Virus record (IMG/VR): IMGVR_UViG_3300028797_000004
Strand: one strand, 5' to 3'
DNA from: a virus
Taxonomy: Duplodnaviria > Caudoviricetes
DNA: 64,000 nucleotides
The translations under genes and the position numbers were made by a program. The notes beneath the pieces are model-generated. The model searched no databases. It was given only the letters and a program-made list of their open reading frames with translations, and had not been told where the DNA came from. This document shows, piece after piece, positions 1,370 to 55,496 of the stretch. Position 1 is the first letter of the stretch; each line of letters opens with the position of its first letter.

Positions 1370-1375
1370 AGGTAG

Positions 1376-3496: not shown

Positions 3497-3850
3497 ATGA
3501 AAAGTGGAATTCTTCTTACATCAGCAGCATTATTAGATTTTCTGTCGCAGATAGATGAGCTCAGCGAGCAAGAAATATCTGTTTCAGAATCTGATAGCAA
3601 TATTTCAGTGCAAATAGGTCAATCCTTATATAATATTGACGGTACTGTAGAAGAGGTTACAGCTCCAGATTATGTTGTATCTGATGTCGAAGACATATGC
3701 GATGATGCATACAGCAATCTGATAGATGCTGGGGCTGCTGAGGACATTGAGTCTTCAACTACAGTCACTGGCGGTATCGTCAAAGAATTAGCAAAAACAC
3801 TACTTGTGGGCGGACTTGTTCGCTTCACATCAAAATTACTAAGGAAGTGA
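3497..3850 (+). CDS. Hypothetical acidic protein with a basic amphipathic C-terminal helix (candidate head protein)
   Basis: RBS GAGGTG; directly upstream of the prohead protease; carries the IESSTTVTGG motif. Confidence 0.6.
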   Translation: MKSGILLTSAALLDFLSQIDELSEQEISVSESDSNISVQIGQSLYNIDGTVEEVTAPDYVVSDVEDICDDAYSNLIDAGAAEDIESSTTVTGGIVKELAKTLLVGGLVRFTSKLLRK

Positions 3851-3857
3851 AAGTAAT

Positions 3858-5258
3858 ATGGCAAATGTAGAAAAGGTCAAGAAATCTGTAAATGCACTTG
3901 CTATGCCAGTATTGGGCACATTTGAAGGTGAATGCCTCAACCCGAAGATAACTAACAATAATGGTATGGACATTACTGATGAGGTAATGACTGGTGTGCT
4001 CAATTCAGATGACTACGCAAGAGGCATTGAATACGGCTGGTTTATCGGCTTCTTAGGTCACCCAGAAGACCCTAACTGTATGGATTTCAGAAACGGCTGT
4101 ATTGTGATGCGCGAAATGCACTATGGTGACGATGGCAAGATGTACGGTACTTGGGATCTACTTGATACTCCTGTAGGCCAAGTAGTTAAAACTTACATTG
4201 ATGCAGGTGTTAAATTTGGTATTTCAATCAGAGGCGCAGGAGACCTCATTGGCTCCGAAGTGCAAGCAGACACATTTGTATTCAGAGGATTTGATCTTGT
4301 ATCCTTCCCTGCATACAATGATTCAATTCCTGAATTCACAGCTATTGCAGCTTCAACAGATCTAGCTACTCAGAAAAAATACAAAGCAATCTGCGCAGCT
4401 ATTCGCTCTAATCTGCAAGCTATTACAAGTGCAACAACACTTGCAGCTTTGAAGGATCAGCTTCCTGCACAAGCTGAAGAGCGCAAGTTGATTGAAGCTC
4501 GTATTGCTGAGATTCAAGGTGAATCTGTTACTGCCGCAACAGATATCTCTGAACAGAGGGTTGTAGCTATGACAGACCTTTATCTCAACACATTAGCTGA
4601 TAATTCAAAGCTTGCATCAGATCTTGATGCTACAAAATTGAAGCTCACAAAAGTAGAGAGCGCATCTAGAAGAAAACTCGATGCAGTTAAGCGCATAGTA
4701 GCTGCACAGCAGAGAGATATTAATACATATATTAAATCTTCTACAGCAACTACTGAGAAGCTTGAAAAGCAATGCAGAAATCTTAGACAGCAGTATGTCA
4801 CAGCTTCTACAGAAGTGAAAAATCTGGAAAAGTCAAACCTTATATATCAACAAGACCTCGAAGCAGCCAATGCAAAGAATGCACGCAGCGAGAAACTCAT
4901 TTCCAGTCTCAGGGCTAGGAACCAGAAAACCGTTCTGGCAAGTAGTCAGCTTGAGAAGAAAGCATCAAACCTTGATGAAGACAGATCAAAATTGAGAAAA
5001 GAAAAAGAGCTTGCTGAAGCACGTCTTGCTGAATTCCAGAATGCATATGCATCATTATATGCATCTATGATGGGTTCAGAAGGTCAAGTTGCAATTACTG
5101 CTAGTATGTCAGTTTCAGACGTACGCAACGCTGTTGCAGGTGCTACAAATACATCTTCAATAGCTGCATATCCTGATACCGATTTCGAGGAAGACGTCGA
5201 CTACACTGATGAATTTGCATCAGATTTTGACGACACAGAATCTTTTACAACTCTATAA
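3858..5258 (+). CDS. Prohead (maturation) serine protease fused to a coiled-coil scaffold
   Basis: Triad motifs LGHP / GISIRGAG / FDLVSFPA and 'LLDTPVG' as in T4 gp21-type proteases; long heptad-rich C-terminal half; immediately upstream of the MCP. Confidence 0.85.
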   Translation: MANVEKVKKSVNALAMPVLGTFEGECLNPKITNNNGMDITDEVMTGVLNSDDYARGIEYGWFIGFLGHPEDPNCMDFRNGCIVMREMHYGDDGKMYGTWDLLDTPVGQVVKTYIDAGVKFGISIRGAGDLIGSEVQADTFVFRGFDLVSFPAYNDSIPEFTAIAASTDLATQKKYKAICAAIRSNLQAITSATTLAALKDQLPAQAEERKLIEARIAEIQGESVTAATDISEQRVVAMTDLYLNTLADNSKLASDLDATKLKLTKVESASRRKLDAVKRIVAAQQRDINTYIKSSTATTEKLEKQCRNLRQQYVTASTEVKNLEKSNLIYQQDLEAANAKNARSEKLISSLRARNQKTVLASSQLEKKASNLDEDRSKLRKEKELAEARLAEFQNAYASLYASMMGSEGQVAITASMSVSDVRNAVAGATNTSSIAAYPDTDFEEDVDYTDEFASDFDDTESFTTL

Positions 5259-5274
5259 TGAAGGAGAGATATAC

Positions 5275-6723
5275 ATGATTAAGCGCACATCACGCAGACC
5301 TGCTCAGACTGCTGCTCCTGCACGTCAGTCAATCACAGCTGGTACTTCTATCACAGCTGCTGCAAAGAAGAGAGCTCAGAATAAGCCTGCTATTCTTGCT
5401 AACACACGCATGAAGGGTCTTACTCCTGCTCAGCAGCAGTTTGCTCGTCAGCTTCAGATAAACGGTAGAAAGCATTCAAAGATCATGGGTGCAACCAATA
5501 CAACAAATATTGCTGCACGTCCTGACTTCCTTGAGCTGCTTCCTCTGTTCGTTCAGAAGCTCATCATCACTGATCTTTATGGTTCAGTTGCAATGAACTC
5601 CAGAACTCAGATGGTTCCTTACTTCAAGGTAACAACTGAGAATACAAAGGGTGAGACAGAGAAGAATACAATCCTCTCTAGCCCATTTGTAAATCGTCAG
5701 GGTATTGACCCTAACTACGCAACAAAGTACATCAAGAACGAGCTTGTTGCTTCAACCGGCACAGTTACTTCTGGTACTCTTGTTTATGTTCCTGTACTTC
5801 CTAACAGCGTTACAGTTACTGCTACAGTATCTGGCGTTGCTACAAAGTATGTTGATAACGGCGCTGGCGCACTTGTTAACGCAGGTGGCAGCTCAGTAGG
5901 TACTATCGACTACGCAACAGGTGCAATCACATTCCCAAGCACATCACTCAGCACAAATGACACTGTTACAGCTACTTACGAGTACGACAATGAGACAGTT
6001 GGTCCTGACACAAACGGCGAGTATGGTGCAAGAATGGGCAAGCTGATCCTTCAGCTTGATGAGTTCAACCTCGTTGCTGAGGCATTCGAGCTTGCAAGCT
6101 ACTGGTCTGTATACAGCGCATTTGCTGCACAGCAGGAGTGGGGCAGCTCTATCGCTGATATGGCTAAGGAAGCTGCATTCGGCGAGCTTACAGCTGAAAT
6201 CAACTCTGCTGGCTTCAAGAAGCTCAAGCAGGCTGCAACATACAACACAGCTTACAACTTCAATGTAGCTCCTGTACTTCAGGGCTCAGTAGTTCCTTCT
6301 GATTACCTCAATATGTTCAAGCTTAAGCTTCAGCAAGCAGCTGCTGGTGTTTACCAGGCAACACGTCTTGCAAGACCTAACAGACTTTCAGTTGGTACAA
6401 ATGTTGCAACATACATCGGCATGATCAACAGCTTCAAGGCTGCATCAGTTGAGGATACAGTTGGACCATACAAGGTAGGTACACTTGACCAGTTCGAGAT
6501 CTACTGCGATCCTAACTATGATCCTAATGAGTGGGTAATGTCCTGCAAGAGCAACGACATCAGAAAGAACTCTGCTCTCTTCGGCGAGTATATGCCTTTC
6601 ACTTCCACACAGGCTGTTGGTCTGGCAAATATGTCAGTACAGGAAGGCTACTGCTCAATGCTTGCAATGAACGTAGTAAACCCACAGACAGTCGTAGGCG
6701 GCAAGATCGTCGGCACATTCTAA
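5275..6723 (+). CDS. Major capsid protein, T4 gp23-like, with basic N-terminal propeptide and a beta-rich insertion domain
   Basis: Start corrected to ATG 5275 (RBS AAGGAG); gp23-like segments 'DLYGSVAM', 'ELTAEIN', 'VGTLDQFEIYCDP', 'FGEYMP'; strong high-expression codon bias. Confidence 0.85.
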   Translation: MIKRTSRRPAQTAAPARQSITAGTSITAAAKKRAQNKPAILANTRMKGLTPAQQQFARQLQINGRKHSKIMGATNTTNIAARPDFLELLPLFVQKLIITDLYGSVAMNSRTQMVPYFKVTTENTKGETEKNTILSSPFVNRQGIDPNYATKYIKNELVASTGTVTSGTLVYVPVLPNSVTVTATVSGVATKYVDNGAGALVNAGGSSVGTIDYATGAITFPSTSLSTNDTVTATYEYDNETVGPDTNGEYGARMGKLILQLDEFNLVAEAFELASYWSVYSAFAAQQEWGSSIADMAKEAAFGELTAEINSAGFKKLKQAATYNTAYNFNVAPVLQGSVVPSDYLNMFKLKLQQAAAGVYQATRLARPNRLSVGTNVATYIGMINSFKAASVEDTVGPYKVGTLDQFEIYCDPNYDPNEWVMSCKSNDIRKNSALFGEYMPFTSTQAVGLANMSVQEGYCSMLAMNVVNPQTVVGGKIVGTF

Positions 6724-6773
6724 TCCGAATTTCGGATAACTTAATTTCGCAATTAACTGCATAGAAATCACAC

Positions 6774-6802
6774 AGCCCTTACCGTCAGGTGAGGGCTTTC
6801 TC
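6774..6802 (+). terminator. Intrinsic terminator-like hairpin after the MCP
   Basis: AGCCCTTACC-GTCA-GGTGAGGGCT followed by TTCTC. Confidence 0.6.
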
Positions 6803-6984
6803 ATTGTATGAATCGTCATACATTGTGAAAGGAACAGAGATCGCAGAAGTAAACCTATAATATAGATGTGATAGGTAGGACGTGAGAAACCCTGCCAATG
6901 CAGTTCTTTTGCATATATGAACGCTTCGGCAGCAGAGCTGTATGAAGCAACTAACAAGAAATCTACACATAGGAGGGACAATGT

Positions 6985-7344
6985 ATGTCATACAGTGTTA
7001 CTATTGTTTACAACGGACCTAAGGTAGACACACTGCCTGTAGTAAATCCGATTTGTCGTGTATTCACACCTCAGAATTGCTACGCTGATACAGCTGCATA
7101 CGCAGGTACAGTATACGACACAAACGTAGACGGTTTCGGCACAATTGATCTCATGGAGCCTTATGCTACTACAAGCTTCCCATTCCCTGTACCGCTTGCT
7201 CAGTTCAAGTGTGCACTTATTGCTGACGACAATACAGCTGAGTTCACAGTTGATACTTACATGGAAGCATTCTACTATACAGAGGCTGGCAAGGCACTCG
7301 CAGATCAAGGCTTCACTGTTACAGTTGACGAGAACGAGGGCTAA
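6985..7344 (+). CDS. Hypothetical virion protein (possible head decoration)
   Basis: RBS AGGAGG, MCP-like codon bias, position after the MCP. Confidence 0.5.
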   Translation: MSYSVTIVYNGPKVDTLPVVNPICRVFTPQNCYADTAAYAGTVYDTNVDGFGTIDLMEPYATTSFPFPVPLAQFKCALIADDNTAEFTVDTYMEAFYYTEAGKALADQGFTVTVDENEG

Positions 7345-7392
7345 TAACTAGCCGTCGGCAAATGATATCAAGGCAAGGGAGTTGAGTACTTT

Positions 7393-8103
7393 ATGACAAT
7401 GGCAGAATATGTTCAGCAAGTGTCCTTCATACTCGGACTCCCTGCTTCTGATAATGTAGAAGGCATCGATATTCAGCAGGGTGTTACACTTGCATTTCAA
7501 GAGCTGAAAGCATACATGAAGACACCTGTTGATAAAACAGTTCCATATCAATCAAGAATAGATCTTGTTGCTAATGACATACACACGAAACGAGTGTTGT
7601 ATGTATTTGCAGCGAAGCCTAGACTTGGTCTTACAATGAGCTCTATTGAAAGTGGTAATGTTTTTCAAATCGCAGCAGCTGTTAACACATACAGCCCATA
7701 CGGTCAAGCAAACATTATCAATATAGATCCGATAATGAGAGAGCTCGCACTGTCACAAGTACGAAATACTCTTGGCACAGATCTCCAATGGGTTCATGAT
7801 ACTCAGAATCAAGTAGTTTACGTTGCTAACAAAGATCCGGTACCCGTATTTGTAACAATTCGTTACTACCCATTATACAACGATGTATCTGAAATAGTTA
7901 GTGACGTATGGATAGACTACTTAAGACGGCTTTCTGTTGCATACTGCAAATTAGCTCTCGGGCGTGTTCGCAGTAAGTATAAAGTAAGCGACTCAAACAT
8001 GGAACTAGATGGCGAAATTCTACTCAATGAAGCAAATCAAGAGTTCGCAGATATTCGTGCTGAACTTAAGATAAAGAAAAGCAAACTTGTGGTGGTTCAG
8101 TAA
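7393..8103 (+). CDS. Putative neck/head-tail adaptor (T4 gp13-like)
   Basis: 'WIDYLRRLSVAYCKLALGRVRSKY....LDGEILLNEANQE' resembles the gp13-family C-terminus; synteny. Confidence 0.55.
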   Translation: MTMAEYVQQVSFILGLPASDNVEGIDIQQGVTLAFQELKAYMKTPVDKTVPYQSRIDLVANDIHTKRVLYVFAAKPRLGLTMSSIESGNVFQIAAAVNTYSPYGQANIINIDPIMRELALSQVRNTLGTDLQWVHDTQNQVVYVANKDPVPVFVTIRYYPLYNDVSEIVSDVWIDYLRRLSVAYCKLALGRVRSKYKVSDSNMELDGEILLNEANQEFADIRAELKIKKSKLVVVQ

Positions 8104-8138
8104 CTATCACAAAATTCTATATAAGGAGGAACACGCTG

Positions 8139-8525
8139 ATGAAAATCCAGACTAGAAGAACTACAAAGGCTATCAAGGCTGATGACGAGATCGATGAGAT
8201 CGTTGACGATGTTGATACTGCTGTAGAGGAAGAGGCTGATCTTCTTTTCGAGAGCGAAGATGTTGCTGAGCTGCTTGCAGAGGTAACAGGCGAAGCTGTT
8301 GATATGGAAGTTACAGACGACGCAGTTGTCTTCACAGTTGGCGATGAAGAGTTTGAGATTACACCTGAGGGCGACGAGGAGAGCCTCGAAGCTTGCACAA
8401 AGACAAGCAAGAAGCCAGTTCAGGCTGCTACAAAGACAAGATCAGCTCGTACACGTAGAGGTGCTGTAAAGGCTTCTACACAGACAGCTGGTAAGGTTAT
8501 CAGAAAGCTGCCTCGCACAAAGTAA
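8139..8525 (+). CDS. Acidic-core, basic-ended hypothetical protein (candidate internal head/core protein)
   Basis: RBS AAGGAGG; AIKAD, VQAA and VKAS motifs. Confidence 0.6.
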   Translation: MKIQTRRTTKAIKADDEIDEIVDDVDTAVEEEADLLFESEDVAELLAEVTGEAVDMEVTDDAVVFTVGDEEFEITPEGDEESLEACTKTSKKPVQAATKTRSARTRRGAVKASTQTAGKVIRKLPRTK

Positions 8526-8554
8526 GGTTGTTACTTTCAAGTTTCCTTTAATAA

Positions 8555-8586
8555 GGTGACCCTGGCGAAAGTCGGGGTCATCTCTG
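8555..8586 (+). terminator. GAAA-tetraloop hairpin (terminator-like)
   Basis: GGTGACCCTGGC-GAAA-GTCGGGGTCATC; the U-tract is weak. Confidence 0.45.
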
Positions 8587-8603
8587 TATATGGAGGTGTT
8601 AAA

Positions 8604-9581
8604 ATGGAAAAGATAGAAGCTGGTGCAGTCACTACTGTAGTGAATCTTATTAAGAAGCTTTCTAGCGCGTTTCTCAAAGTGCTGAATAGTTTCATTGATG
8701 CAGGCGTTGAGATTGTGTCGCAAGATGTAACAAAGGATGGCGGAGCTCATGTGGTCATGAAATATAATAATCAGAAAGCTGAAGTTACGCTCACTCCTGT
8801 AGAGGGTAAGAAAGGTGTTTTTAATCTGCTTATCATTGCTCCTGATGGACAAGATCTCAATGTCGAAAATGTCAAAGAAGCTGATATTGAAAAAACAGTT
8901 AAGCGAAATCTTGACAGCTACTTCAAGCTCAAACAGAAACTTGGCGGAAGTAAGCAGTTATTAGCAACGCTTCAGAAGATCGAAACCGCTTCGGGCTATG
9001 ATATTCGACTTAGAAAGATAGTTGCAAATTATGACCCAGAAGCAGTGCTCAAAGTACTTGACGAGTGCATCGCTGATGACGGTCTCTGCAATGCAATCAC
9101 ACAAGAGCCGATGACTCTGCTTATTGCAGAAGACGGAGACGATTATACAATAGATGATGTGACTACTTCTGCAGCAGAGTGGAGCATGAATCCTTACACA
9201 GAGTTAGTTGCATATGCTCAGCGAGTACTGAATGTGATTGCAATGGCGTCAGTTAGATGTAACTGTGCTTCTTGTGACCCAATATTGGCTGCTCTGCAAT
9301 CTTGCAGATACGGTGTAGAAGCACTTCGTGATATGCTTATGAAACAGTCTCTCAAAGAGTTCAATGAAGTTCCTACATTGTTTGTAACAGAGACTGTGGA
9401 TTACACACAGATGTCAACAGGAGATCCGCTACAAGACTTGCAGCTTGTTTACACAACAATGCTTCAAAGATTTGTTGAAACTTGTAAGACATATGCTTCA
9501 GGATTTGATGATGGTGCATTCATTGTAGCATTTTTTGAGGAGCTTTATCGCTTAGAGTCAACACTAGATTTCGCTAAGTGA
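8604..9581 (+). CDS. Hypothetical protein
   Basis: Start corrected to ATG 8604 after GGAGGTG; begins MEKIEAG. Confidence 0.6.
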   Translation: MEKIEAGAVTTVVNLIKKLSSAFLKVLNSFIDAGVEIVSQDVTKDGGAHVVMKYNNQKAEVTLTPVEGKKGVFNLLIIAPDGQDLNVENVKEADIEKTVKRNLDSYFKLKQKLGGSKQLLATLQKIETASGYDIRLRKIVANYDPEAVLKVLDECIADDGLCNAITQEPMTLLIAEDGDDYTIDDVTTSAAEWSMNPYTELVAYAQRVLNVIAMASVRCNCASCDPILAALQSCRYGVEALRDMLMKQSLKEFNEVPTLFVTETVDYTQMSTGDPLQDLQLVYTTMLQRFVETCKTYASGFDDGAFIVAFFEELYRLESTLDFAK

Positions 9582-9627
9582 TTCGTTATAGAACGTGATC
9601 AACTCGAATCTTCAGGAGGTGCGTTCT

Positions 9628-10068
9628 ATGAAATATGAGCTTAGTCCTGGTAAAAAGCTTGCAGAATATTTACTTGGTGGTCATGCAATTGTGACCCTAG
9701 AATCTACTGCGATGTCTGAAAAAAGTCGGTACATTTCTTATGTTTTTGATAAACTTGAACATGAGAAATCCATACAGGTGTCGCTCACAGGCGCTGCGGG
9801 CGGCGCAGCTATATGCAAGGTCTATGGTAGGGCTATTATGCCAATATCACCATACACTTCAAATACACCCGAAATTCGTGGCGTTGCATATATACTTCAA
9901 GCTGTATTTCTTGGTAGAGTAGATTCTCGCATACACATTTACCATACAGGTACATGTAGCGTGTGCGGTCGGCAACTACATACACCTAAAGCTTTACTGC
10001 GGGGCATGGGACCTAAATGCGCTGCAAAAGCGACTTTCATAGCTTCGCAGTTGATGACACATGTTTGA
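9628..10068 (+). CDS. DUF6011-like Zn-finger protein
   Basis: C-terminal 'HTGTCSVCGRQLHTPKALLRGMGPKC'. Confidence 0.65.
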   Translation: MKYELSPGKKLAEYLLGGHAIVTLESTAMSEKSRYISYVFDKLEHEKSIQVSLTGAAGGAAICKVYGRAIMPISPYTSNTPEIRGVAYILQAVFLGRVDSRIHIYHTGTCSVCGRQLHTPKALLRGMGPKCAAKATFIASQLMTHV

Positions 10069-10447
10069 AGTAGATAAGCTTGTGCTCAAACATCTCGAGC
10101 ACAGCCCTAATCGATATGCAGAAGTGAAAGCTATTGCAAACAAAGCGAAACAAATTGCAGATATGTATGACGGACAGATGTTTCATTCAGAAGCTATCAC
10201 ATGTGCTATGACTGAACACTTACCGAAGTATGATTACAAACAACTTGATTCCAAATTAGATCTACTAATTAAAGATATGTTCTGCGAAACTGAAGATTCA
10301 GATGTAAAATTTGCTGTATATGATTCATTGATGCTAAGCAGAAAGAAGCACTACCTAATATATGTTTATAACAACATAGAAGAATCAGGTCGTCAAGCTC
10401 GTGTTCGAGTCTTGACAAATCTTCTGTGGTACAAAGCTTCTGAGTGA
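10061..10447 (+). CDS. Hypothetical protein with RNAP omega (RpoZ)-like N-terminus
   Basis: 'NRYAEVKAIANKAKQI...AITCAMTE' versus the omega pattern NR[YF]xLVxxxAxRARQ...xxxALxE. Confidence 0.35.
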   Translation: MFEVDKLVLKHLEHSPNRYAEVKAIANKAKQIADMYDGQMFHSEAITCAMTEHLPKYDYKQLDSKLDLLIKDMFCETEDSDVKFAVYDSLMLSRKKHYLIYVYNNIEESGRQARVRVLTNLLWYKASE

Positions 10448-10458
10448 GGTGTCAATTT

Positions 10459-10767
10459 ATGAGCACAGTAGTCTTTGAGGAGACAATCATCATCAATCAC
10501 TCATCATTGATGAAATCACCTGAGTTACATGCTGGTGATTATATTGCATTGGTAAATGCTAAGCTATTCAATGATGCGCTGACACGAAAGCACAAGAAAT
10601 ATCTTACAGGTATGTTCTGCGTTTTCAGCTCAAAGAAGCTGGGCTCTAGAATAAAAGTAACTGACTCACCTACAGGTATTTATGATGTTAATCGACTACT
10701 TGGTTGGGTGGATATATCTTCTATCAAAGGAGTGAAAACAAATGGCAGAAATCAAAATTTCAGCTGA
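10459..10767 (+). CDS. Hypothetical protein, SH3-like 'GWVD' ending
   Basis: 'RIKVT.....LLGWVD' resembles cell-wall-binding SH3-like modules; next to the endolysin. Confidence 0.4.
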   Translation: MSTVVFEETIIINHSSLMKSPELHAGDYIALVNAKLFNDALTRKHKKYLTGMFCVFSSKKLGSRIKVTDSPTGIYDVNRLLGWVDISSIKGVKTNGRNQNFS

Positions 10768-10921
10768 AGATAAGAAGGAAGTAATCAAAGCAAAAGCTTT
10801 CGGGTATACTGTAGAGCAGATAATGACTGTAACAGGATATTCAAAAGATGATATTGCTGATATCCTCAAAGATGCAGACGAAGCTGTCGCTGCAGTAAAG
10901 GAGAGATACGAAAATGGCTAA
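10742..10921 (+). CDS. Small 59-aa protein (MAEIKISAEDKKEVIKAKAFGYTVEQIM...), possible HTH
   Basis: RBS AAGGAG; overlaps the endolysin start; not in the supplied ORF track. Confidence 0.55.
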   Translation: MAEIKISAEDKKEVIKAKAFGYTVEQIMTVTGYSKDDIADILKDADEAVAAVKERYENG

Positions 10922-12023
10922 GACATTCAAAGGTATTGACGTCAGTCAATGGCAGGGAATCATTGACTGGTCAAAAGTTGCTAAGCAAGTTGACTATGCT
11001 ATTCTGAGAATCGGCTATGGTCGCTCTGCTTCACAAGTTGATAAACAGTTCACACGTAACTACACCGAAGCAACAAAGAATAAGATTCCAGTAGGCGGCT
11101 ACTGGTACAACTATGCAGAAACCGTTGATGATGCTAAGAACGAAGCTGCAGCTTGCATAAAGGTTCTTGAGAGCAGAAAGTTCGACTATCCAATCTTCTA
11201 TGATATAGAGGAATCTGCTGTACTGAAGCTTGGAAAGACGAAAGTTTCGGCAATAGCTGAGGCATTCTTGTCTGCTCTTGAGAGTGCAGGTTACAAAGTT
11301 GGCATATATTCTATGGCGTCTGCGCTTAACAACAGCATCGGTGTAGCTACACTCAATAAATATGATGTGTGGGTTGCTCATGTAGGTGTAAATGCACCCG
11401 CATTCAGCAAGCCTTATACAATGTGGCAGAATACATGGACAGCAAAGATTGACGGTATCGGCGGTAATGTTGATGCAGACATTTGCTACAAAGAGTATGT
11501 AACCGCTAAGGAAGATTCAAAGCCTACAGAAAAACCTGCAGCACCTGCAAAGACGGATGCAGATTATAACAAAGCTGCTGAGGATACAATCGCTGGTGTT
11601 TACGGCAACGGTGCTGAGAGAACCAAGAAGCTTGAAGCTGCTGGCTTTGATGCAAAGAAGGTGCAAGAACTTGTAAACAAGAAGCTTGCCGAAGTAAAAC
11701 CTGTAACACCTACACAGCCTGCAGAGACACTTGCTTCTGTAGCGTTAGATGTAATTGCTGGTAAGTACGGCAACGGTGTTGCTAGAATTCAAGCACTTAC
11801 AGCTAAGGGTTACAATGCTACAAACGTACAGCAAGCTGTTAATGCAATACTTTCAGGTAGATCTGTACCGTGGCTGCCGCTCAAAGGTAAATCCATTGAC
11901 GAGTTAGCTAAAGAAGTAATCGCAGGTAAATGGGGCAATGGTGACGCTCGCAAACGTGCGCTTGAAGCAGCTGGCTACAACTACGCTCAAGTACAAGCCA
12001 GAGTAAACGCTTTACTGAAGTAA
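10914..12023 (+). CDS. Endolysin: GH25 muramidase with three CW_7 (Cpl-7) cell-wall-binding repeats
   Basis: 'GIDVSQWQG', 'PIFYDIE', 'GNVDAD'; three 'A.(E/D).IAG.(Y/W)GNG..R...L.A.G(Y/F)....VQ..VN' repeats. Confidence 0.92.
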   Translation: MAKTFKGIDVSQWQGIIDWSKVAKQVDYAILRIGYGRSASQVDKQFTRNYTEATKNKIPVGGYWYNYAETVDDAKNEAAACIKVLESRKFDYPIFYDIEESAVLKLGKTKVSAIAEAFLSALESAGYKVGIYSMASALNNSIGVATLNKYDVWVAHVGVNAPAFSKPYTMWQNTWTAKIDGIGGNVDADICYKEYVTAKEDSKPTEKPAAPAKTDADYNKAAEDTIAGVYGNGAERTKKLEAAGFDAKKVQELVNKKLAEVKPVTPTQPAETLASVALDVIAGKYGNGVARIQALTAKGYNATNVQQAVNAILSGRSVPWLPLKGKSIDELAKEVIAGKWGNGDARKRALEAAGYNYAQVQARVNALLK

Positions 12024-12064
12024 GACATAGTCTTTTCCTTTGTGAATTCATTAATATACTCCGT

Positions 12065-12097
12065 CGGAATAGCGTCGCAACAGCGGCGCTATTTCCG
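12065..12097 (+). terminator. Hairpin after the endolysin
   Basis: CGGAATAGCGTCGC-AACA-GCGGCGCTATTTCCG. Confidence 0.55.
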
Positions 12098-12177
12098 TGT
12101 ATGCCTATGAATCGTTATTATCTTTGAAACATACATCAAAATAAAATTATTTTGTATTTTCAAGGAGTTGATATCAA

Positions 12178-12360
12178 ATGAAATTCGAGGTCACAGACGT
12201 AAAAGGTAACATACTTTTTGTTACTGAATACAAAGAATGCTTACCTACTGACGATGAACTCAAGAGTATGCGTACCGTGAACTATCGCTATCGTGTAGAT
12301 GGTAAGTTTGTAGATAAGGAGAAGATACTGAAGATAGTAAAGGAGCTGAGAGAATCATGA
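12178..12360 (+). CDS. Small hypothetical protein
   Basis: RBS AAGGAG; overlaps the helicase start. Confidence 0.55.
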   Translation: MKFEVTDVKGNILFVTEYKECLPTDDELKSMRTVNYRYRVDGKFVDKEKILKIVKELRES

Positions 12361-14168
12361 ATATTAATGTAATCCAGAACAATAATGTTTACAACATCTA
12401 TTTTCAGTATGATCCAAGTATTGTTGCTCTGATGCATAACATACCTGGTGCCGCATTTGATAGAGATTCTAAATCTTGGGTGATTGGCAAAGAGCAGCTT
12501 GGCTGGTTTATCAATGAATTCAAAGGTACAAGATTTGAGCCCTGGGTGCATATCTACTCTGATGAAGAGCTCGGACGCAATGAAACCTTTGACGACGTGG
12601 CTACTATACCTGATATTGATATCTCAGATATAGATATTCGGGTTGAAAACGGCAGCAAGCTTTATGCACACCAAATTGATTTTTTGAAGTATGCAAAAGA
12701 CAAGGGCACAAATGGCTATTTACTGGCAGACGAGCCTGGACTTGGAAAGACCTTAGAAATTATCAACATAGCGCTTTACAACAGAAAACGCTATAGTTTC
12801 AAGCATTGTTTAGTTATTACTTGTGTGAACTCTGCTAAATTCAACTGGAAAGCAGATATAGAGAAGCACACCAATGGTCAAGAGGTCGGTTACTTGCTAG
12901 GTACTACATTATACAAGAGAAAAGGCAAAGGTGAGAAGTATGACCTTACTCCTGAAAACAAGTGTTTGGATCTCATTAATCTGAGAAAATACAAGGGTCA
13001 AGGCGATCCGCTACCTTACTTTATCATACTCAATGTTGAGGGGCTCAGGTACAAAGCTGGTGGTATGTATGCTATTGCTGCTCGCATTGCAGATCTGATC
13101 AACGAGGGCGAGATAAATATGGTGGTACTCGACGAATGCCATAAAGGTATCAGCCCTACCTCACAGCAGGGTAAGCTCATACTTGAAATAAAGAAAGCTA
13201 CACAAAAGAAAGCTCAATGGATTCCAATGACTGGTACACCAATTGTGAATAGACCTACTGACTTATTCACACCTCTGAGACTCATTGATGCACACAGTAC
13301 TAGAAGCTATTATGAATGGTGTAAGCATTTCGCTGTATATGGCGGTCATGACGATAAAGAGGTGCTGGTGTATAAGAATATCAGTCAGCTGAAGAAACTT
13401 CTACATGGGCACATGATTCGCAGGCTTGCCGATCAGGTACTTGACTTACCTCCTATCATTCGTATACCTATCTATGTTGAAAATACAGCATATCAGAAGC
13501 GATTGTATACTAAGATTGCTAAGGAGCTTGAAGCTAGAGCTGGTGAAATTACAGAGCAGAAAACTAACCCGCTTGTTGAGATGCTTAAACTGAGACAAGT
13601 AAATGATGCACCTGAACTTGTAGATCCTGAACTCAAGATAGATAAGTCATACCTCAGTAAAAATGCAAAGCTTGCAGAAATAATTTCATACATTGACGAA
13701 TTCGTTGCTTCTGGAGAAAAGGTAGTAGTCTTCGCCAAGTATCTGGAACCGTTGAAAACCTTGTATAAATTCATCGCAACAAAGTATAAAACCGCTTGTT
13801 TCACTGGCTCAATGTCAGATGCTAAACGTGAGCAGCATAAGAAAGTATTCATGAACGACCCTGAATGCAAGGTACTTATCGGCACGATAGACGCAATGGG
13901 CACGTCTCACACTTTCACAGCAGCTCGTGTAGGCATCTTCTTTGAAGAAAGTTGGACAGCGGCAGACCAAGAGCAAGCTGAAAAGCGGCTTCATCGTATC
14001 AGTACTAACGGCACTGTAAGGTTCTACACATTCCTTGCAGCTAATACAGTAGATGATAGGGTGCATCGAATTATCTATGAGAAGAAAGCAACATCTGACT
14101 ACATTGTAGATAACATAGATGTACGGCACAACCCTGAAGCGTTCTTACAGTTGCTTGGAAACTACTAA
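12357..14168 (+). CDS. SNF2-family helicase/translocase with HARP-like N-terminal domain
   Basis: 'LLADEPGLGKT', DECH box, 'MTGTPIVN', 'QAEKRLHRI'; N-terminal 'FQYDP..VA....IPGA.FD...KSW'. Confidence 0.9.
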   Translation: MNINVIQNNNVYNIYFQYDPSIVALMHNIPGAAFDRDSKSWVIGKEQLGWFINEFKGTRFEPWVHIYSDEELGRNETFDDVATIPDIDISDIDIRVENGSKLYAHQIDFLKYAKDKGTNGYLLADEPGLGKTLEIINIALYNRKRYSFKHCLVITCVNSAKFNWKADIEKHTNGQEVGYLLGTTLYKRKGKGEKYDLTPENKCLDLINLRKYKGQGDPLPYFIILNVEGLRYKAGGMYAIAARIADLINEGEINMVVLDECHKGISPTSQQGKLILEIKKATQKKAQWIPMTGTPIVNRPTDLFTPLRLIDAHSTRSYYEWCKHFAVYGGHDDKEVLVYKNISQLKKLLHGHMIRRLADQVLDLPPIIRIPIYVENTAYQKRLYTKIAKELEARAGEITEQKTNPLVEMLKLRQVNDAPELVDPELKIDKSYLSKNAKLAEIISYIDEFVASGEKVVVFAKYLEPLKTLYKFIATKYKTACFTGSMSDAKREQHKKVFMNDPECKVLIGTIDAMGTSHTFTAARVGIFFEESWTAADQEQAEKRLHRISTNGTVRFYTFLAANTVDDRVHRIIYEKKATSDYIVDNIDVRHNPEAFLQLLGNY

Positions 14169-14187
14169 TATATGAAGGAGTGATTCC

Positions 14188-14445
14188 ATGAAGCGATATA
14201 TCAAGCACAGAGCTGTTACAGCTGCAACTATTCAAGCTGCTGAAGCTGATGACAACGGCGTAGACGATATGATTGATAATATCAGTGAAGATTTCGACTA
14301 TATTATCAGTGGTATTGAAACACTCAACCGCCGTGGCGGTGACGATTCTAAGCTGGCTATGTCCATTGCTTCAGAGTTCCGTGTTACTCTCAGTGAGTAC
14401 ATAGATCGTGTATGCAATTCCGTATCCGGAGGTGGCAGAGAATGA
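14188..14445 (+). CDS. Candidate internal head protein
   Basis: Basic N-terminus MKRYIKHRAVTAATIQAAE followed by an acidic body. Confidence 0.55.
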   Translation: MKRYIKHRAVTAATIQAAEADDNGVDDMIDNISEDFDYIISGIETLNRRGGDDSKLAMSIASEFRVTLSEYIDRVCNSVSGGGRE

Positions 14446-15632
14446 AAATAACAAGACGTTCAGTTCCTGTTAAAGCAGCTATCAATAAGTTACCTGCTGG
14501 TGTCAAGCCTGCCGATACACCTGTAAAAGACTACGCAGAGCAACTTGCATCTGCTGTATGTAAGTCTCTTACAGATAATGGCTACATCTGTGAATACAAA
14601 TTAAACACAAAATCAATTGTGTTTACAGTAGCTGTTGATACTAATGCAGATATCGACATTAATTTTACACTTCCGCTTTCAGCGATTGTTCCTGAAGCAA
14701 CAGTATCTGCTGATATGGCTACAGTGGTTGATAAGATCATGAATCTTGCACCACTTACATCTCCTGGTACTGATGTGGATCTTACAGCTGAGGTAACGTC
14801 CTCTACTCAGATTCAAGCTTCTGATTATCGTCAGTACGAAGATCCAGAATTACTTGAAAGACAGATCCAAGATATCACTGCTGAGTATGAATCCAGAAAA
14901 GCTGCTGGTGAGCTTGACGTAGACGAAGCTTGGTCGTATGAGCAAGAGATTCAGGAGCTTGAAGATCGACTTCGTTTCGCTTATGCAGATGAAGAGTATG
15001 ACGGTGCTGATATAACAAGCACATCAGTAATGTGTGCAAGCGATTCTGAGCTTAGAAAATATGGTCGTCGTTTCGGCGATGCTCTCATTGAAGACCTCTG
15101 GGACGACTACGATATCACAGCTGAGTATAAGCTTACAGACGATTCAATTATCGTTTACGTTTACGCAGATAGATACAAGTCTGCACTACTCACAACAGTA
15201 ACAAGAGAGCTTCAGGAACTTCTTGATGATTCTGTAGATCTTGGCACTGATGTAGCTAATCTTGCCGCAGAAATCGACATCAAGTGCTTCGGCGAATACA
15301 GTGTAGTTGACAGCGCTACTGGTGTTGAAGCCATTGATGACAAAGAACCTGTACTCGGCAGTTACAAAGATGACGAAGCTTATAAGAAGCTTCTTGAGTA
15401 TGATTACATACTTGATACTTCTGATGACGGTTGTGTGATTAAATTCTCGGATGGCGATCCATATGCTACATTCCGATTCGTGCCAGCTTCTGAAGAAGAT
15501 GCTGCTGCAGGTCTTGATGAGTGGCTGATATACGCTGACGGAGATTTGATCAACGAACGTCTTGACTACTACCCAACAAACTATGACGAAGCTGTAAAAA
15601 CAGCTATCAGATATTTCTGGTCACACTATTAA
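14442..15632 (+). CDS. Acidic multi-module protein (candidate internal head polyprotein)
   Basis: Start at ATG 14442 (RBS GGAGGTGG); modules separated by [VI]x[ASG][ASG] motifs. Confidence 0.55.
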   Translation: MKITRRSVPVKAAINKLPAGVKPADTPVKDYAEQLASAVCKSLTDNGYICEYKLNTKSIVFTVAVDTNADIDINFTLPLSAIVPEATVSADMATVVDKIMNLAPLTSPGTDVDLTAEVTSSTQIQASDYRQYEDPELLERQIQDITAEYESRKAAGELDVDEAWSYEQEIQELEDRLRFAYADEEYDGADITSTSVMCASDSELRKYGRRFGDALIEDLWDDYDITAEYKLTDDSIIVYVYADRYKSALLTTVTRELQELLDDSVDLGTDVANLAAEIDIKCFGEYSVVDSATGVEAIDDKEPVLGSYKDDEAYKKLLEYDYILDTSDDGCVIKFSDGDPYATFRFVPASEEDAAAGLDEWLIYADGDLINERLDYYPTNYDEAVKTAIRYFWSHY

Positions 15633-15652
15633 TTAAGTGAGGTGTATGATAT

Positions 15653-16669
15653 ATGAATATTAAAAGAAGAAAGAAAGCAGTAACTGCTTCAACACGCAGA
15701 CCTGCAAGACGTAAGGTAATGGCTGCTGATAGTGATTATATCAAGATCGGCAGTAGAATTCTTCCAAGAAACACAGCAGGTATGCGTGACGAAGCAAGCT
15801 ATGCTGAAGTTTCACGTGAGGGTAAGCGTAGATATGATGCTGAGCAGGAAGAGAAGCGTCTTGCTGCTGAGAAAGCAGCTAAGCTTGAACGAGGCAGAGC
15901 TGGCGCTACCGCATTTAACAGAATCCTTGAGGAGCACAAAGGCGAGCCAGATAGATATGGACTCTGGGGTGATCTTTTTGACGAGTTTGTACCTGGTGAA
16001 GGTGCTGCTGATACAATGGGCGGTGAAATTATTCGTGCGATAAACCGTGTTATCTACAGATGGGAGAACGACGGTGATAAGTTCAATCAAGGCTATGGCT
16101 TAGAAACCTGTGCTTCTGATGCTGCTTTCCTTGCAGAGAATACAGATAGTAAGATTGAGAAGATCATTGCGGGCGCAGCTGAATTGGATCCTGGCGCTCC
16201 TGATGAGCTTTATTCTGCTGCTATGGAGAAGCTTGAAGAAGCTGTTATTGAATTCTTAGCTAACAACCCAGAGGTATTTGGCGAGGATTCAATTGATTCT
16301 CGTGAATTCGATTCATACCTTATAGATGAGTGGAACGAAATGTCACATTCTCTTGAGTATGAGCCGGATACATCTGGCGAGTATCTTGACAGACTCATAG
16401 AGGCTGACTGTGTCAACTACGACGATGTTGATCAGCTACTTTGTGATTGGGCTGAGTATGATATGGGCGGCGAAGTAAATCGTTGGGCACAAGATGCTTG
16501 GACAATTACTAACTTGGATATAGACCAGTTTAACGACTGGAACGACAACTTCGAGCGTTGGTGGAACCAGACTCTTGACGAGTGGATGAATGAGTATGAG
16601 GATCAGCTTATCGCTTACGAAGAGGGCGAAGAAGACGAAGATGAGTATGACGAGGACGAGGAGGAGTAA
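15653..16669 (+). CDS. Acidic protein with basic N-terminal leader (candidate internal head protein)
   Basis: MNIKRRKKAVTASTRRPARRKVMAAD; internal segment 'LFDEFVPGEGAADTMGGEIIRAINRVIYRWENDGD'. Confidence 0.6.
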   Translation: MNIKRRKKAVTASTRRPARRKVMAADSDYIKIGSRILPRNTAGMRDEASYAEVSREGKRRYDAEQEEKRLAAEKAAKLERGRAGATAFNRILEEHKGEPDRYGLWGDLFDEFVPGEGAADTMGGEIIRAINRVIYRWENDGDKFNQGYGLETCASDAAFLAENTDSKIEKIIAGAAELDPGAPDELYSAAMEKLEEAVIEFLANNPEVFGEDSIDSREFDSYLIDEWNEMSHSLEYEPDTSGEYLDRLIEADCVNYDDVDQLLCDWAEYDMGGEVNRWAQDAWTITNLDIDQFNDWNDNFERWWNQTLDEWMNEYEDQLIAYEEGEEDEDEYDEDEEE

Positions 16670-16671
16670 GT

Positions 16672-17478
16672 ATGAAGCTCTATAAGAAATCTATGTCAAT
16701 ATCTGCTAGTTGCGGAACCAAGAAAAAGGCTGTAACTGGCGAAGACGAGGTTTATGACATTGTAATGGAAGAAGATTACGGTCCTACTACTGGTCAGCGT
16801 ACTCTGCATAAAGGGCTAGATCGTGCTTCGGCACGATCTGCAGTCCGTCATTATAACAAGCGCGCTATGCCTAATCAGAGATTCTATGAAGAAACTGAAG
16901 AAGAGCGTCTCGGCAGACGTCCAGTTCGTTCTTCTACAAGAGTTACAGCTGCTCAAAGAGACAGCTCTGCAGTAGTTAATAAAGCTCGTGACATATATGC
17001 ATCCTTGTGTGATTTATATTTTGATATGACACAAGGTGCAAACGCTCCATTTTCTGCAGAAGGCGCACCTGCATATTATCTAGATAAAGCAATCAGCGCA
17101 ATAGATGACATCTATGCCTTCGGTCTCAGTGAAGAAGATAGAGAAGCAATGTCTGTTGATGGTGCTACTTGCGTCTCCGGCTCAGATTATTTTGATGAAG
17201 ATGATGAGGAGTACGAAGATGAAAATGAAGGTGCCGCATCTATTGAGATAGACGGCGATGTAGCTCGTGATTTCGGCGCATCTTTACTTCAAGAGCTTGT
17301 AGAAGCAAGAGTTGACTGCATCAGCATCTATGATGTAGAAATCGGCAGAAACCTTACAACTTTCTACTATGAGATAGACGATGTCAATAATGACTATACA
17401 ACGGACGAAGTCAACGACATGATTGAAATTGCTGTTGCAGAAATTATTGGTGATGCCGAAGAAGGTCAGTTTGACTGA
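16672..17478 (+). CDS. Acidic multi-module protein (candidate internal head polyprotein)
   Basis: MKLYKKSMSISAS leader; internal VRSSTRVTAA and VDGATCVSGS motifs. Confidence 0.55.
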   Translation: MKLYKKSMSISASCGTKKKAVTGEDEVYDIVMEEDYGPTTGQRTLHKGLDRASARSAVRHYNKRAMPNQRFYEETEEERLGRRPVRSSTRVTAAQRDSSAVVNKARDIYASLCDLYFDMTQGANAPFSAEGAPAYYLDKAISAIDDIYAFGLSEEDREAMSVDGATCVSGSDYFDEDDEEYEDENEGAASIEIDGDVARDFGASLLQELVEARVDCISIYDVEIGRNLTTFYYEIDDVNNDYTTDEVNDMIEIAVAEIIGDAEEGQFD

Positions 17479-22675: not shown

Positions 22676-23086
22676 GTGAAATTATACATTCGCGCAGCAC
22701 AGCTACCGACACCAGCTTCACAGCTAGTGAATCGCATAGGCAAATATCTATATGCGCACATCGACGGCGCTTACAAGTTCAAGAAAGACAGAAACACTTA
22801 TGATCTCTACATGGATTTATATTATCAAGCTTTGCATGACTGGACACCTAACGGATGGATGGATTCTCCGCCCGTAAATGAAATGAAAATCAACATCTCC
22901 ATTACTACCTACCAGAATAAGATCCGTGTCAATACAATTGAGGTAACGCCTGAAGCACGAACTCTAGGCTATGATCTATTCAAACCTGAACAGCTTGAAG
23001 ATCTCGCAGAGGCGCAGCAGCTGATACTCAGTAAAGTAAAGCGCAGAATTGAAGCTGCGTACTCGAATTGTATCATCTCAATCTGA
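22676..23086 (+). CDS. Hypothetical protein with MKLYIRA N-terminal tag
   Basis: RBS AGGTG; first 7 aa identical to those of 52497..52958. Confidence 0.6.
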   Translation: MKLYIRAAQLPTPASQLVNRIGKYLYAHIDGAYKFKKDRNTYDLYMDLYYQALHDWTPNGWMDSPPVNEMKINISITTYQNKIRVNTIEVTPEARTLGYDLFKPEQLEDLAEAQQLILSKVKRRIEAAYSNCIISI

Positions 23087-51588: not shown

Positions 51589-52500
51589 ATGAACATCAAC
51601 AACACTACTACAGACAGATATGACCCTTTGCAGTTTGCGTCGCCTCTGTATGAGACATTCGCAAGTTGCGCAAATTTCTTACAGTACACCAAGCCGCTGA
51701 CTTATGACGAATGGTTTGTTCTTGACCAGGATCATAAGGCTGCGGCTCTTTATGTGCAGTTTTTCTCGCAGATAACACTTGCTTGGTACAAGTGTAAGCA
51801 GATATATGCATCTTTCTATGCTTCGGAAGAAGACGCAGTATCAACTATGTTTCAGTATATTCTCAAGAACATTCCGCTGATAGAAGCAGACGGCAAGAAG
51901 TTTACAGAGGCCTACATGTATAAGGTAGCTTACAACTGCTTGTACTGCATCTGCCACGATATCAAGCGTGACAAGGACAGATATGAACTTGAGATGTCAA
52001 ACTGTATCTGCGACGATTGCGGTGAAGTGATGATAGACCTTTTCGATACAGTAGCTGAGCTTGACTCACTTAATACAGAGATGCTCCGAGATCATCTTTG
52101 GTCAACTGTTGACAAGCTGCCAGCTAAATATCAGCAAGTAGTTGCTTGGCTGTTAGGCGAGCCGCTTGGTGCTGGTGTAGGTCCTGTTTTGAAGCGCCAA
52201 ATTCTTAAGGATCTTAAATTCTACTTAGCTCCATACACATCGCTGTATGAGCCAAAATCCTATGAATTCAAGACCTTCGGTGACCTCATGGAGCACATAG
52301 ATATTATCTCTTCCGCTACAGTGATTCTTTCTGACGGTACTGAGACAGTATTCTTCCCTAGGAACATCAGAGAGTACAAAGACAGAAGAAAGAATACCCG
52401 TAAGGCTGTCTCACTTTTCGGGCCAGATAAAGATTATATTTTCGACACAGAGGCAGCAAGCGACCTTACAGTTACAGACGTGGAGGTGAAACATATATGA
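51589..52500 (+). CDS. Divergent ECF-like sigma factor
   Basis: 'EEDAVSTMFQYILKNI.......FTEAYMYKVAYNCLY' (region 2) and 'LWSTVDKLPAKYQQVV' (start of region 4). Confidence 0.5.
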   Translation: MNINNTTTDRYDPLQFASPLYETFASCANFLQYTKPLTYDEWFVLDQDHKAAALYVQFFSQITLAWYKCKQIYASFYASEEDAVSTMFQYILKNIPLIEADGKKFTEAYMYKVAYNCLYCICHDIKRDKDRYELEMSNCICDDCGEVMIDLFDTVAELDSLNTEMLRDHLWSTVDKLPAKYQQVVAWLLGEPLGAGVGPVLKRQILKDLKFYLAPYTSLYEPKSYEFKTFGDLMEHIDIISSATVILSDGTETVFFPRNIREYKDRRKNTRKAVSLFGPDKDYIFDTEAASDLTVTDVEVKHI

Positions 52501-52958
52501 AATTGTATATAAGAGCTATGTCAGATACTCAAAAAGCTGTTGAATCTGAGCTCAAAGCTAAAGCAGATCTTGTCATTGAGCACATTATCAAAGTAATTGC
52601 AATGCCAGAGCATCAGTCTGTTAAACATTGGAAGAAAGAGATTGTAATGTTCATACATAAAGTAAATAAACTTAAGCGTACAAATAAATGGCCTACAGCT
52701 CAGCAGATATTTAACTGGACATATGGTAAGTGGGCTGACGAATTGCACAGTGACGGCTGGATTCAAGGTGAGTTAGATGCATTATGCTTTGAGTATGACT
52801 TAGAAGTTGAGCTAGATGCGGACAATTACGCCGAAAGTATTCTTGCAGTTTGTGAGGGTTATTTCCATAAACTTGCAGACGAACTATCTGTAAGAGGCTC
52901 AATTTCGCCGCAAGTAATGTATGATACACTTGACGAGCTGTTGAGCTCTCAGATCTGA
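52497..52958 (+). CDS. DUF29-like protein with MKLYIRA tag (paralog A)
   Basis: 'VESEL....LVIEHIIK...PEH...HWKKEI'. Confidence 0.45.
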   Translation: MKLYIRAMSDTQKAVESELKAKADLVIEHIIKVIAMPEHQSVKHWKKEIVMFIHKVNKLKRTNKWPTAQQIFNWTYGKWADELHSDGWIQGELDALCFEYDLEVELDADNYAESILAVCEGYFHKLADELSVRGSISPQVMYDTLDELLSSQI

Positions 52959-52974
52959 CAAGCGGGGTGAAAAC

Positions 52975-55470: not shown

Positions 55471-55496
55471 ACTTATATCTACAGGAGGTGATAGCC

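Follow-up and report, generated by a model that had tools for sequence, protein, structure and literature searches.

A recurrent V/I-x-A/S/G motif as the probable cleavage code of a T4-type prohead protease in an uncultured tailed phage

The 64,000-nucleotide stretch of the virus record IMGVR_UViG_3300028797_000004 (Caudoviricetes), hereafter the window, carries a head module in which one open reading frame (ORF 3858-5258) encodes a prohead protease fused to its scaffold, followed by a major capsid protein (MCP). A short motif, scored as [VI]x[ASG][ASG], recurs in the scaffold half of the protease, at the N-terminus of the MCP and in several further proteins. An earlier reading of the same DNA (the original prediction) had proposed that this T4-type head is matured by a protease cutting at the motif, which would also label the proteins loaded into the head. 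From the comparisons reported here, we consider it probable (about 0.7) that the motif serves the phage's own prohead protease as its substrate code. A search of deposited phage DNA returned no near-identical record for the window, and the nearest cultured phages share only ~25% identity in the MCP. An endolysin with GH25 and CW_7 domains (10914-12023) and a RecU resolvase (17491-17982) indicate a Gram-positive host; the window itself covers part of the genome of a large, uncultured phage.

The protease was assigned by profile and by fold. ORF 3858-5258 matches PHROG 207, 'head maturation protease', over residues 23-159 (2e-18), while the Pfam family S77 (PF03420) reaches 20.4 bits (3.9e-4) and thereby stays under its 27-bit cut-off; many close homologs bear a precomputed match to this family. 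An AlphaFold (AF2) model built from 68 homologs, with a mean predicted local distance difference test score (pLDDT) of 80 and about 90 in the protease domain, folds residues 18-162 into a compact domain, after which come long helices. The best Foldseek matches were three chains of T4 gp21 (5JBL; E 1e-5, template modelling (TM) score 0.66-0.68, root-mean-square deviation 2.1 A, 138 columns), with herpesvirus proteases next (E 2e-3 and worse, TM about 0.4). His68 in G-H-P and Ser123 in G-I-S-I-R-G are invariant in the 68 homologs, and both the gp21/assemblin fold and the contexts of the catalytic His and Ser are those of a T4-type prohead protease. In an alignment, the counterparts of G-I-S-I-R-G are G-I-S-S-R-G in Bacillus phage HSE3 gp062 and G-V-S-S-R-G in T4 gp21 (first Ser = residue 140), so the residue following the nucleophile is Ile here and Ser in T4 and in those relatives whose scaffolds carry a Glu-type motif (Glu-type relatives).

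The MCP starts at 5275, corresponding to Met23 of ORF 5209-6723, as judged by the N-termini of its homologs. Its AF2 model retrieved the capsid proteins of phage P1, Staphylococcus phage S6 and T4 (gp23*) with E 1e-17 to 1e-8, that of phage P1 being the best match, and the Pfam match (Table 1) and an HK97-type fold with a T4-type insertion domain place it in the Gp23 family. Since the protease adopts the 5JBL fold and the MCP matches these three capsid proteins, the original prediction was correct in describing a T4-type head with a protease-scaffold fusion.

All motif occurrences that it had listed were found in the sequence, including ten in the scaffold half (ICAA is an eleventh), those at MCP residues 20 (ITAG), 26 (ITAA) and 70 (IMGA), and the five tandem 10-mers ITAGTSITAA, IESSTTVTGG, VTSSTQIQAS, VRSSTRVTAA and VDGATCVSGS; its ORFs 8604, 14442 and 40564 are alternative starts inside ORFs 8556, 14412 and 40555. 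The protease-scaffold ORF holds 13 matches versus 3.24 expected, a number reached by none of 200,000 whole-protein shuffles, and the scaffold half alone holds 11 versus 1.9-2.6 expected, local shuffles in blocks of 15-50 residues included (p <= 2e-4). The reversed motif served as a control and occurred 0 times in the scaffold half against 11 forward matches. The corresponding numbers were 114 reversed versus 633 forward in 68 non-redundant homolog scaffolds, and 90 versus 87 in the remaining proteome of the window. Enrichment was also obtained for the ORF set of the original prediction, a post hoc choice, with 59 matches versus 19.8 expected (z 9), the other ORFs having 87 versus 82.9. Tandem pairs spaced by 2 residues were found 6 times versus 0.59 expected (p about 0.001). 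The site logo reads I/V, then T-rich, then A>S>G, then S/A/G, then T/S, and in a survey of gapped a-x-b-c patterns across the homologs, V-x-A-S and I-x-A-S were the sole enriched patterns with several copies per protein.

The motif is conserved by family as well as by position. In all 120 protease-scaffold homologs (38-98% identity) the scaffold half is enriched, with a mean of 8.5 versus 1.8 for the narrower motif [VI]x[AS][AS] used for homolog scaffolds. In an alignment of 68 non-redundant homologs, in which the mean column identity is only 40%, a motif starts at residue 163 in 99% of the sequences, at 178 in 81%, at 359 in 79%, at 426 in 78%, at 280 and 334 in 69% each, at 413 in 54%, at 189 in 53% and at 347 in 51%. 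Six sites (residues 163, 189, 224, 359, 413 and 426) lie at helix breaks or in regions of the AF2 model with a pLDDT below 50. I-A-A-S at the joint of protease and scaffold is a candidate self-release site by analogy with the R-site of herpesviruses, and Glu-type relatives carry V-V-E-S or L-T-E-S in the joint region. Near the C-terminus, V-A-G-A is a candidate for an M-site-like cut that would free the acidic tail. Two of the 13 matches, IDAG and IRGA, sit within the folded catalytic domain, the latter directly after Ser123, and are probably not substrate sites. The T4 rule L/I-x-E finds no counterpart by the sequence proxy available for it: [LI]xE shows no excess in the scaffold (6 versus 3.5 expected), and MCP residues 1-85 contain no Glu at all.

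Two further observations concern the ends of this protein. After the last site, the scaffold tail (residues 426-466) repeats MCP residues 70-85 (G-A-T-N-T-x-x-I-A-A-x-P-D) and then becomes strongly acidic; it may mimic the N-arm of the MCP and tether the scaffold to the shell, as the herpes scaffold tail binds the capsid protein. At the other end, 62% of the 68 protease homologs open with a short leader ending in I-T-A-S/A at ~residue 7-10 (alignment column 20), which parallels L-I-E near the N-terminus of T4 gp21; the copy in the window reads V-K-K-S and lacks a proper site.

Motif sites are likewise retained across 120 homologs of the MCP. Among 87 non-redundant homologs, the variable basic propeptide retains the tandem, V/I-M/T-A-S/N and a final I/V-M/T-G/A-A-T-N-T, and some homologs carry the unit R-R-P-V-T-A-S in 3-4 copies. 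Residues 1-45 and 66-82 are disordered in the model, and the ordered fold begins at Pro83. As A-T-N-I-A-A of T4 gp23 lies 11 residues past the known cut, T-N-I-A-A of the MCP probably belongs to the mature N-arm, which leaves I-M-G-A (residues 70-73) as the likely site of maturation.

The motif is also found behind short leaders on otherwise unrelated proteins. ORFs 14188, 14442, 15653, 16672 and 8139 share with the MCP a basic start, a site at about residue 10-25 and a strongly acidic sequence after the site. M-K-[RLI]-Y opens 5 of the 108 ORFs (14188, 16672, 22676, 52497 and 52975) versus 0.3 expected (binomial tail 1e-5), and in relatives the leader M-K-R-Y-I-K/R-A/S-A/S stands on many unrelated ORFs near the head genes, among them leucine-rich-repeat-variant proteins. 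A short shared leader that ends in the protease motif and precedes unrelated proteins is thus present. Counterparts of ORFs 14188 and 16672, identified by position in the related locus L001, have kept the leaders, their bodies having diverged past blastp detection, and relatives of ORF 14188 bear different leaders of the same type. Bacillus phage HSE3, examined over its first 50 kb, showed no leader family that recurs. The family of ORF 8139 carries motif copies in both basic ends, their number differing among relatives; in the window, the leader ends in I-K-A↓D at residues 12-15 (arrows mark predicted cuts), with V-Q-A-A at 94 and V-K-A-S at 110. Internal tandems are located at residues 118-127 of ORF 14442 (128-137 in the numbering of ORF 14412) and, between acidic modules, at residues 85-94 and 162-171 of ORF 16672. 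ORF 3497 is acidic in its middle part and ends in an amphipathic helix that is conserved. Of its tandem, the second part, [VI]-x-[SG]-G at residues 90-93, is kept in six of six relatives, and the first part (IESS) is not conserved.

Table 1. Coordinates of the features discussed (arrows, predicted cuts)
Feature	Position	Strand	Remarks
Small, conserved protein of the head module, immediately 5' of the protease	3497..3850	+	no Pfam or PHROG family
Prohead protease domain, residues 1-162	3858..4343	+	PHROG 207, T4 gp21 / herpes assemblin fold
I-A-A-S, protease/scaffold joint, residues 163-166	4344..4355	+	pLDDT below 50
Scaffold half: long helices, 10 further motif matches, acidic C-terminal tail	4356..5258	+	motif columns conserved
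V-A-G-A, residues 426-429, then T-N-T-S-S-I-A-A	5133..5144	+	end of last helix, disorder after
Gp23-family MCP	5275..6723	+	Pfam Gp23 PF07068 2e-16, above cut-off
Predicted MCP propeptide, residues 1-73, basic leader	5275..5493	+	
Tandem I-T-A-G-T-S-I-T-A-A, MCP residues 20-29	5332-5361	+	
Last predicted propeptide site I-M-G-A, MCP residues 70-73	5482-5493	+	
Acidic core protein, basic N- and C-terminal extensions with motif copies	8139..8525	+	
85-residue acidic protein, leader M-K-R-Y-I-K..., sites V-T-A↓A and I-Q-A↓A before conserved body	14188..14445	+	
Acidic protein (alternative start), basic leader ending V-K-A↓A at residues 10-13	14442..15632	+	
Acidic protein, conserved body A-D-S-D-Y-I-K-I-G..., 24-residue basic leader (V-T-A↓S, V-M-A↓A)	15653..16669	+	
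Acidic protein, leader M-K-L-Y-K-K-S-M-S-I-S-A↓S	16672..17478	+	
Unknown protein starting M-K-L-Y-I-R-A-A (generic leader)	22676..23086	+	beyond the range of the original prediction
Two paralogous unknown proteins (PHROG 31822), M-K-L-Y-I-R-A-M and M-K-I-Y-I-T-S-A	52497..53424	+	beyond the range of the original prediction

The most informative of these proteins is ORF 15653. A blastp comparison with the six closest loci gave no homologs for it or for ORFs 14412 and 16672, and a large protein search returned 21 homologs of ORF 15653 that share the body A-D/E-S-D-Y-I-K-I-G and differ in their leaders. Ala-type leaders place M-K-R-Y-I-K-A or M-N-I-K-R-R-K-I-T-A before the body. Further homologs have M-K-I-R-I-N-E, M-I-K-L-K-E or ...G-L-R-E in the same place, which is the T4-type rule, with L/I-x-E↓A at the joint. 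In some homologs an extra folded module is inserted between two leader copies, in the manner of a polyprotein. As a separate observation, ORF 15653 has as its core (L-V-P..G.A.T..G-E..R-A..R..Y-R..N-D-G-D.F..G-Y-G.E-T) a domain that is widespread in phages, belongs to no Pfam or PHROG family and occurs alone (140-190 residues) or within proteins of 500-1300 residues on many unrelated viral contigs (L012-L091), often beside head genes.

Two covariations connect the motif with the protease. An all-against-all search with the protease domain gave 150 representatives at 50% clustering, 129 of which fall into two groups by the context of the nucleophile. Where this context is G-[IV]-S-[IV]-R-G (n=79), the Ala/Ser motif is observed on average 6.3 times versus 1.6 expected (z>2 in 70 representatives) and [LIVM]xE 7.5 times versus 6.3 (z>2 in 4); with the T4 context G-[IV]-S-S-R-G (n=50), the Ala/Ser motif amounts to 0.7 versus 1.1 (z>2 in 1) and [LIVM]xE to 20.2 versus 11.0 (z>2 in 45). 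One outlier representative with G-V-S-E-R-G is likewise of the Ala/Ser type and may represent a second, independent switch. The T4 scaffold gp22 behaved as a positive control should, with 16 [LI]xE versus 5.75 expected (z 5) and no excess of the Ala/Ser motif, and the cultured distant relatives, namely Bacillus phage HSE3 (gp062/gp063) and Streptococcus phage GXN1 (MCP), are Glu-type. For the second covariation, five phage records with a homolog of ORF 15653 were each searched for their own protease. In the three records with Ala-type leaders, the proteases read G-I-S-[IV]-R-G-A-G-D and the scaffolds are Ala/Ser-type (z 4.2-6.2); Glu-type leaders, found in the other two, go with G-V-S-S-R-G proteases and L-x-E-type scaffolds (z 4.4 and 6.0), so that leader type and protease type agree in 5/5 records.

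When the two leader types are aligned, motif position 3 corresponds to the Glu that is the residue before the cut (position P1) in all relatives studied, and hence the predicted cut falls after this position: V/I-x-A/S/G↓A/S/T/D. In this respect the original prediction needs correction, as it placed the cut after position 4; its Ala/Ser-cutting T4-type protease as such is strongly supported by the site conservation and both covariations. The rule would read Val/Ile at P3, any residue (preferably Thr) at P2, Ala/Ser/Gly at P1 and Ala/Ser/Thr/Asp at P1', which amounts to the T4 rule L/I-x-Glu with an altered P1 and converges on V/L/I-x-Ala↓Ser of the herpesvirus assemblins. After assembly of the prohead, the protease would free itself at I-A-A↓S in the domain joint, then cut the scaffold at about ten sites, cut off the acidic C-terminal tail at V-A-G↓A and take off the basic MCP propeptide, with the final cut at I-M-G↓A about ten residues ahead of the fold. 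The short basic leaders, in their generic form M-K-x-Y-I-K/R-A/S-A/S, would dock unrelated proteins to the scaffold core and subsequently be clipped off like the targeting sequences of T4, and by this analogy the motif-tagged proteins would be loaded into the head.

The closest known counterpart is the T4 core system with gp21 (MEROPS S77), gp22/gp67/gp68, gp23 and the leaders of IPI-III and Alt. Common to both are the protease fold, a Gp23-type MCP with an N-terminal propeptide and the gene order of small core protein, protease, scaffold and MCP. In T4, the capsid targeting sequence comprises about ten residues, starts with M-K-T-Y, ends in the gp21 motif and is removed from polymorphic internal proteins after loading (PMC9026906). 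The window resembles T4 in these leaders of about ten residues (M-K-x-Y) that end in a cut motif on unrelated proteins, and in a scaffold filled with copies of a three-position motif whose P3 is aliphatic (PMC9026906). However, the predicted P1 is Ala/Ser/Gly instead of Glu and the predicted P3 Val/Ile where T4 has Leu/Ile, protease and scaffold form one polypeptide, the nucleophile is followed by Ile/Val and not Ser, and the host is probably Gram-positive. Cleavage after Glu and the use of propeptides are common to the proteases of T4, phiKZ, 201phi2-1 and SPN3US (PMC9026906, PMC5694885, PMC10052503), in agreement with the background given in the original prediction, namely cleavage after I/L-x-E by T4 gp21 and after Glu by phiKZ gp175. 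In the giant phages (phiKZ gp175, 201phi2-1, SPN3US gp245), many head and ejection proteins are processed at redundant propeptide sites (PMC5694885, PMC10052503). Their proteases are T4-related like that of the window, but cut after Glu in S/A/G-x-E, Ala/Ser being found at P1 here and not at P3.

The herpesvirus assemblins (UL26) share with the window a related fold, a protease N-terminal to a fused scaffold, one site at the joint and another near the C-terminus before a tail, and a rule of V/L/I-x-Ala followed by Ser/Thr (PMC4498786); the R- and M-sites of pseudorabies virus, for example, are Y-L-Q-A↓T and V-Q-A↓S (PMC4498786). However, the fold match is weaker (TM about 0.4) than that to T4 gp21 (0.66), and the window resembles T4 in having numerous sites within the scaffold as well as N-terminal leaders on further proteins. 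The Ser-His-His triad and family-level match of MEROPS S21 were not found, the herpesvirus proteases giving weak fold matches only. The protease is therefore assemblin-like in architecture and predicted rule, but not an assemblin. As the neighbours of its clade use Glu, the herpesvirus-like rule is most simply explained by convergence. Phage P1, whose head protein is the best structural match to the MCP, loads cargo into its head by an N-terminal signal on DarB, and its MCP loses 120 residues (PMC9024508); a shared leader family or a defined cut motif is not reported there.

Several observations weigh against reading the motif as a cleavage code. After correction for 108 ORFs, only the protease-scaffold passes individually, the others reaching p 0.0015-0.17 each, and an N-terminal excess of the motif was sought proteome-wide across all ORFs and not found. 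T4 gp21 was reached by the fold search alone: profile and single-sequence searches of the PDB returned neither gp21 nor gp23, only coiled-coil noise. The two nucleophile groups are largely two clades and thus represent one or few evolutionary events, not 129. In addition, the acidic ORFs 14188-17478 are flanked by a SNF2 helicase and RecU, outside the head genes. Finally, four sites (residues 266, 280, 292 and 314) lie within a single long predicted helix, and the motif is also compatible with the signal peptidase I -3/-1 rule; both of these points bear on other explanations of the motif. The helical sites would suit an uncut structural or assembly element, be it small-residue packing in the coiled coils of the scaffold or a retained beta-strand motif in disordered basic tails that docks to scaffold, portal or DNA. 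Matches within folded regions, namely IRGA and IDAG of the protease and several in the body of the MCP, the I-E-A-A repeats of ORF 39725 in conserved helix-like segments and a tandem layout that could fit a dimeric binding partner agree with such an element. However, heptad packing does not account for a strict orientation or for the need of a small residue at position 3, the motif stands at domain joints and leader ends of unrelated proteins, its type follows the active-site context of the protease, and Glu-type relatives carry the experimentally known T4-type cut motif at equivalent joints. Docking and cutting are, moreover, compatible, as the T4 targeting sequence does both. A purely structural role is therefore improbable, though the strongest competitor to cleavage by the phage protease.

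Cleavage by a host protease is considerably less probable still. The -3/-1 small-residue rule of signal peptidase I accommodates V-x-A, and some Firmicutes phages, e.g. Staphylococcus phage 80alpha, borrow the host protease Prp for the processing of capsid and scaffold. The leaders, however, have no hydrophobic core and are too short for signal peptides, the phage possesses an intact protease with invariant His and Ser, and it is the context of this protease with which the motif type covaries in the 129 representatives and the leader type in 5/5 records. That the pattern merely reflects post hoc selection and an Ala/Ser/Thr-rich composition is hardly credible. It is true that the ORFs were chosen by their motif content and that most single-ORF p-values are modest, but composition-preserving shuffles, block shuffles and the reversed motif all fell short of the protease-scaffold count, and every homolog examined was enriched; for the scaffold and the MCP propeptide, chance and composition are ruled out by these controls.

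Beyond the single phage, we favour, with somewhat less assurance than the substrate code itself, a scenario in which a clade of T4-type proteases in gut phages switched P1 from Glu to Ala/Ser. The switch would be linked to a change of the residue that follows the nucleophile (from S-S-R-G to S-I/V-R-G) and would have recreated the V/I-x-A↓S rule and the fused protease-scaffold of herpesviruses. The clip-off tags would have co-evolved, the same cargo body being tagged according to its phage, with a Glu-type leader in Glu-type phages and with an Ala-type leader here, and some cargo would be polyproteins with tag copies between modules. To our knowledge, all T4-type prohead proteases characterised so far cut after glutamate, and a literature search of incomplete coverage found no Ala-specific S77 protease. 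New here are the family-wide dichotomy by the residue after the nucleophile, the concordance of leader and protease, the T4 positive control and the placement of the scissile bond. If the scenario is correct, a natural Ala/Ser clade, its Glu-type sister clades and one candidate determinant would make the basis of specificity directly testable in a fold that is shared with a herpesvirus drug target. It would also allow mature capsid proteins to be predicted from sequence in hundreds of uncultured gut phages, together with those proteins that are packaged and probably injected, and the short tag could serve to load foreign proteins into such capsids, as is the case for the T4 tag.

Not all ORFs of the original prediction can be retained. 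ORFs 39725 and 40564 were dropped, as both lack leaders and the motif of the former falls within conserved segments. ORF 39725 has 7 matches versus 1.6 expected, its I-E-A-A repeats preceding a KTSC domain; the C-terminal KTSC part alone is conserved in two relatives. Both ORFs are probably unrelated to the motif system, and their designation as motif-tagged proteins was not borne out. ORF 8604 has a match at residue 4 and no other support.

Some neighbouring genes deserve mention. The head module is flanked by BspA-type leucine-rich-repeat proteins (LRR_5) and a Big_2-bearing protein (2-3481 and 18459-19715), and in ORF 1376-3481 the N-terminal 280 residues are common to 2-3 paralogs in relatives, the C-terminal parts differing. 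These flanking proteins are probably exchangeable receptor-binding or fibre proteins. A DUF6011 protein (PF19474, 3e-11) is encoded in the late region at 9595-10068 and is kept in a relative (L002). Further downstream, an intact gene for a TnpB / IS605 OrfB-type RNA-guided nuclease (34216-35313; HTH_OrfB_IS605, OrfB_IS605 and Cas12f1-like TNB domains) stands with no transposase seen adjacent to it. A family A DNA polymerase gene (55488-61403) looks as if it were split by mobile endonucleases or inteins. The ORF at 55488-56825 comprises a 3'-5' exonuclease and the beginning of the polymerase domain, and that at 59337-61403 the final part of this domain together with a LAGLIDADG-like domain. Between them lie an ORF that opens with a polymerase-like N-x-Q-N-I-P stretch (57655-58368) and another whose N-terminus resembles a GIY-YIG endonuclease (58503-59249).

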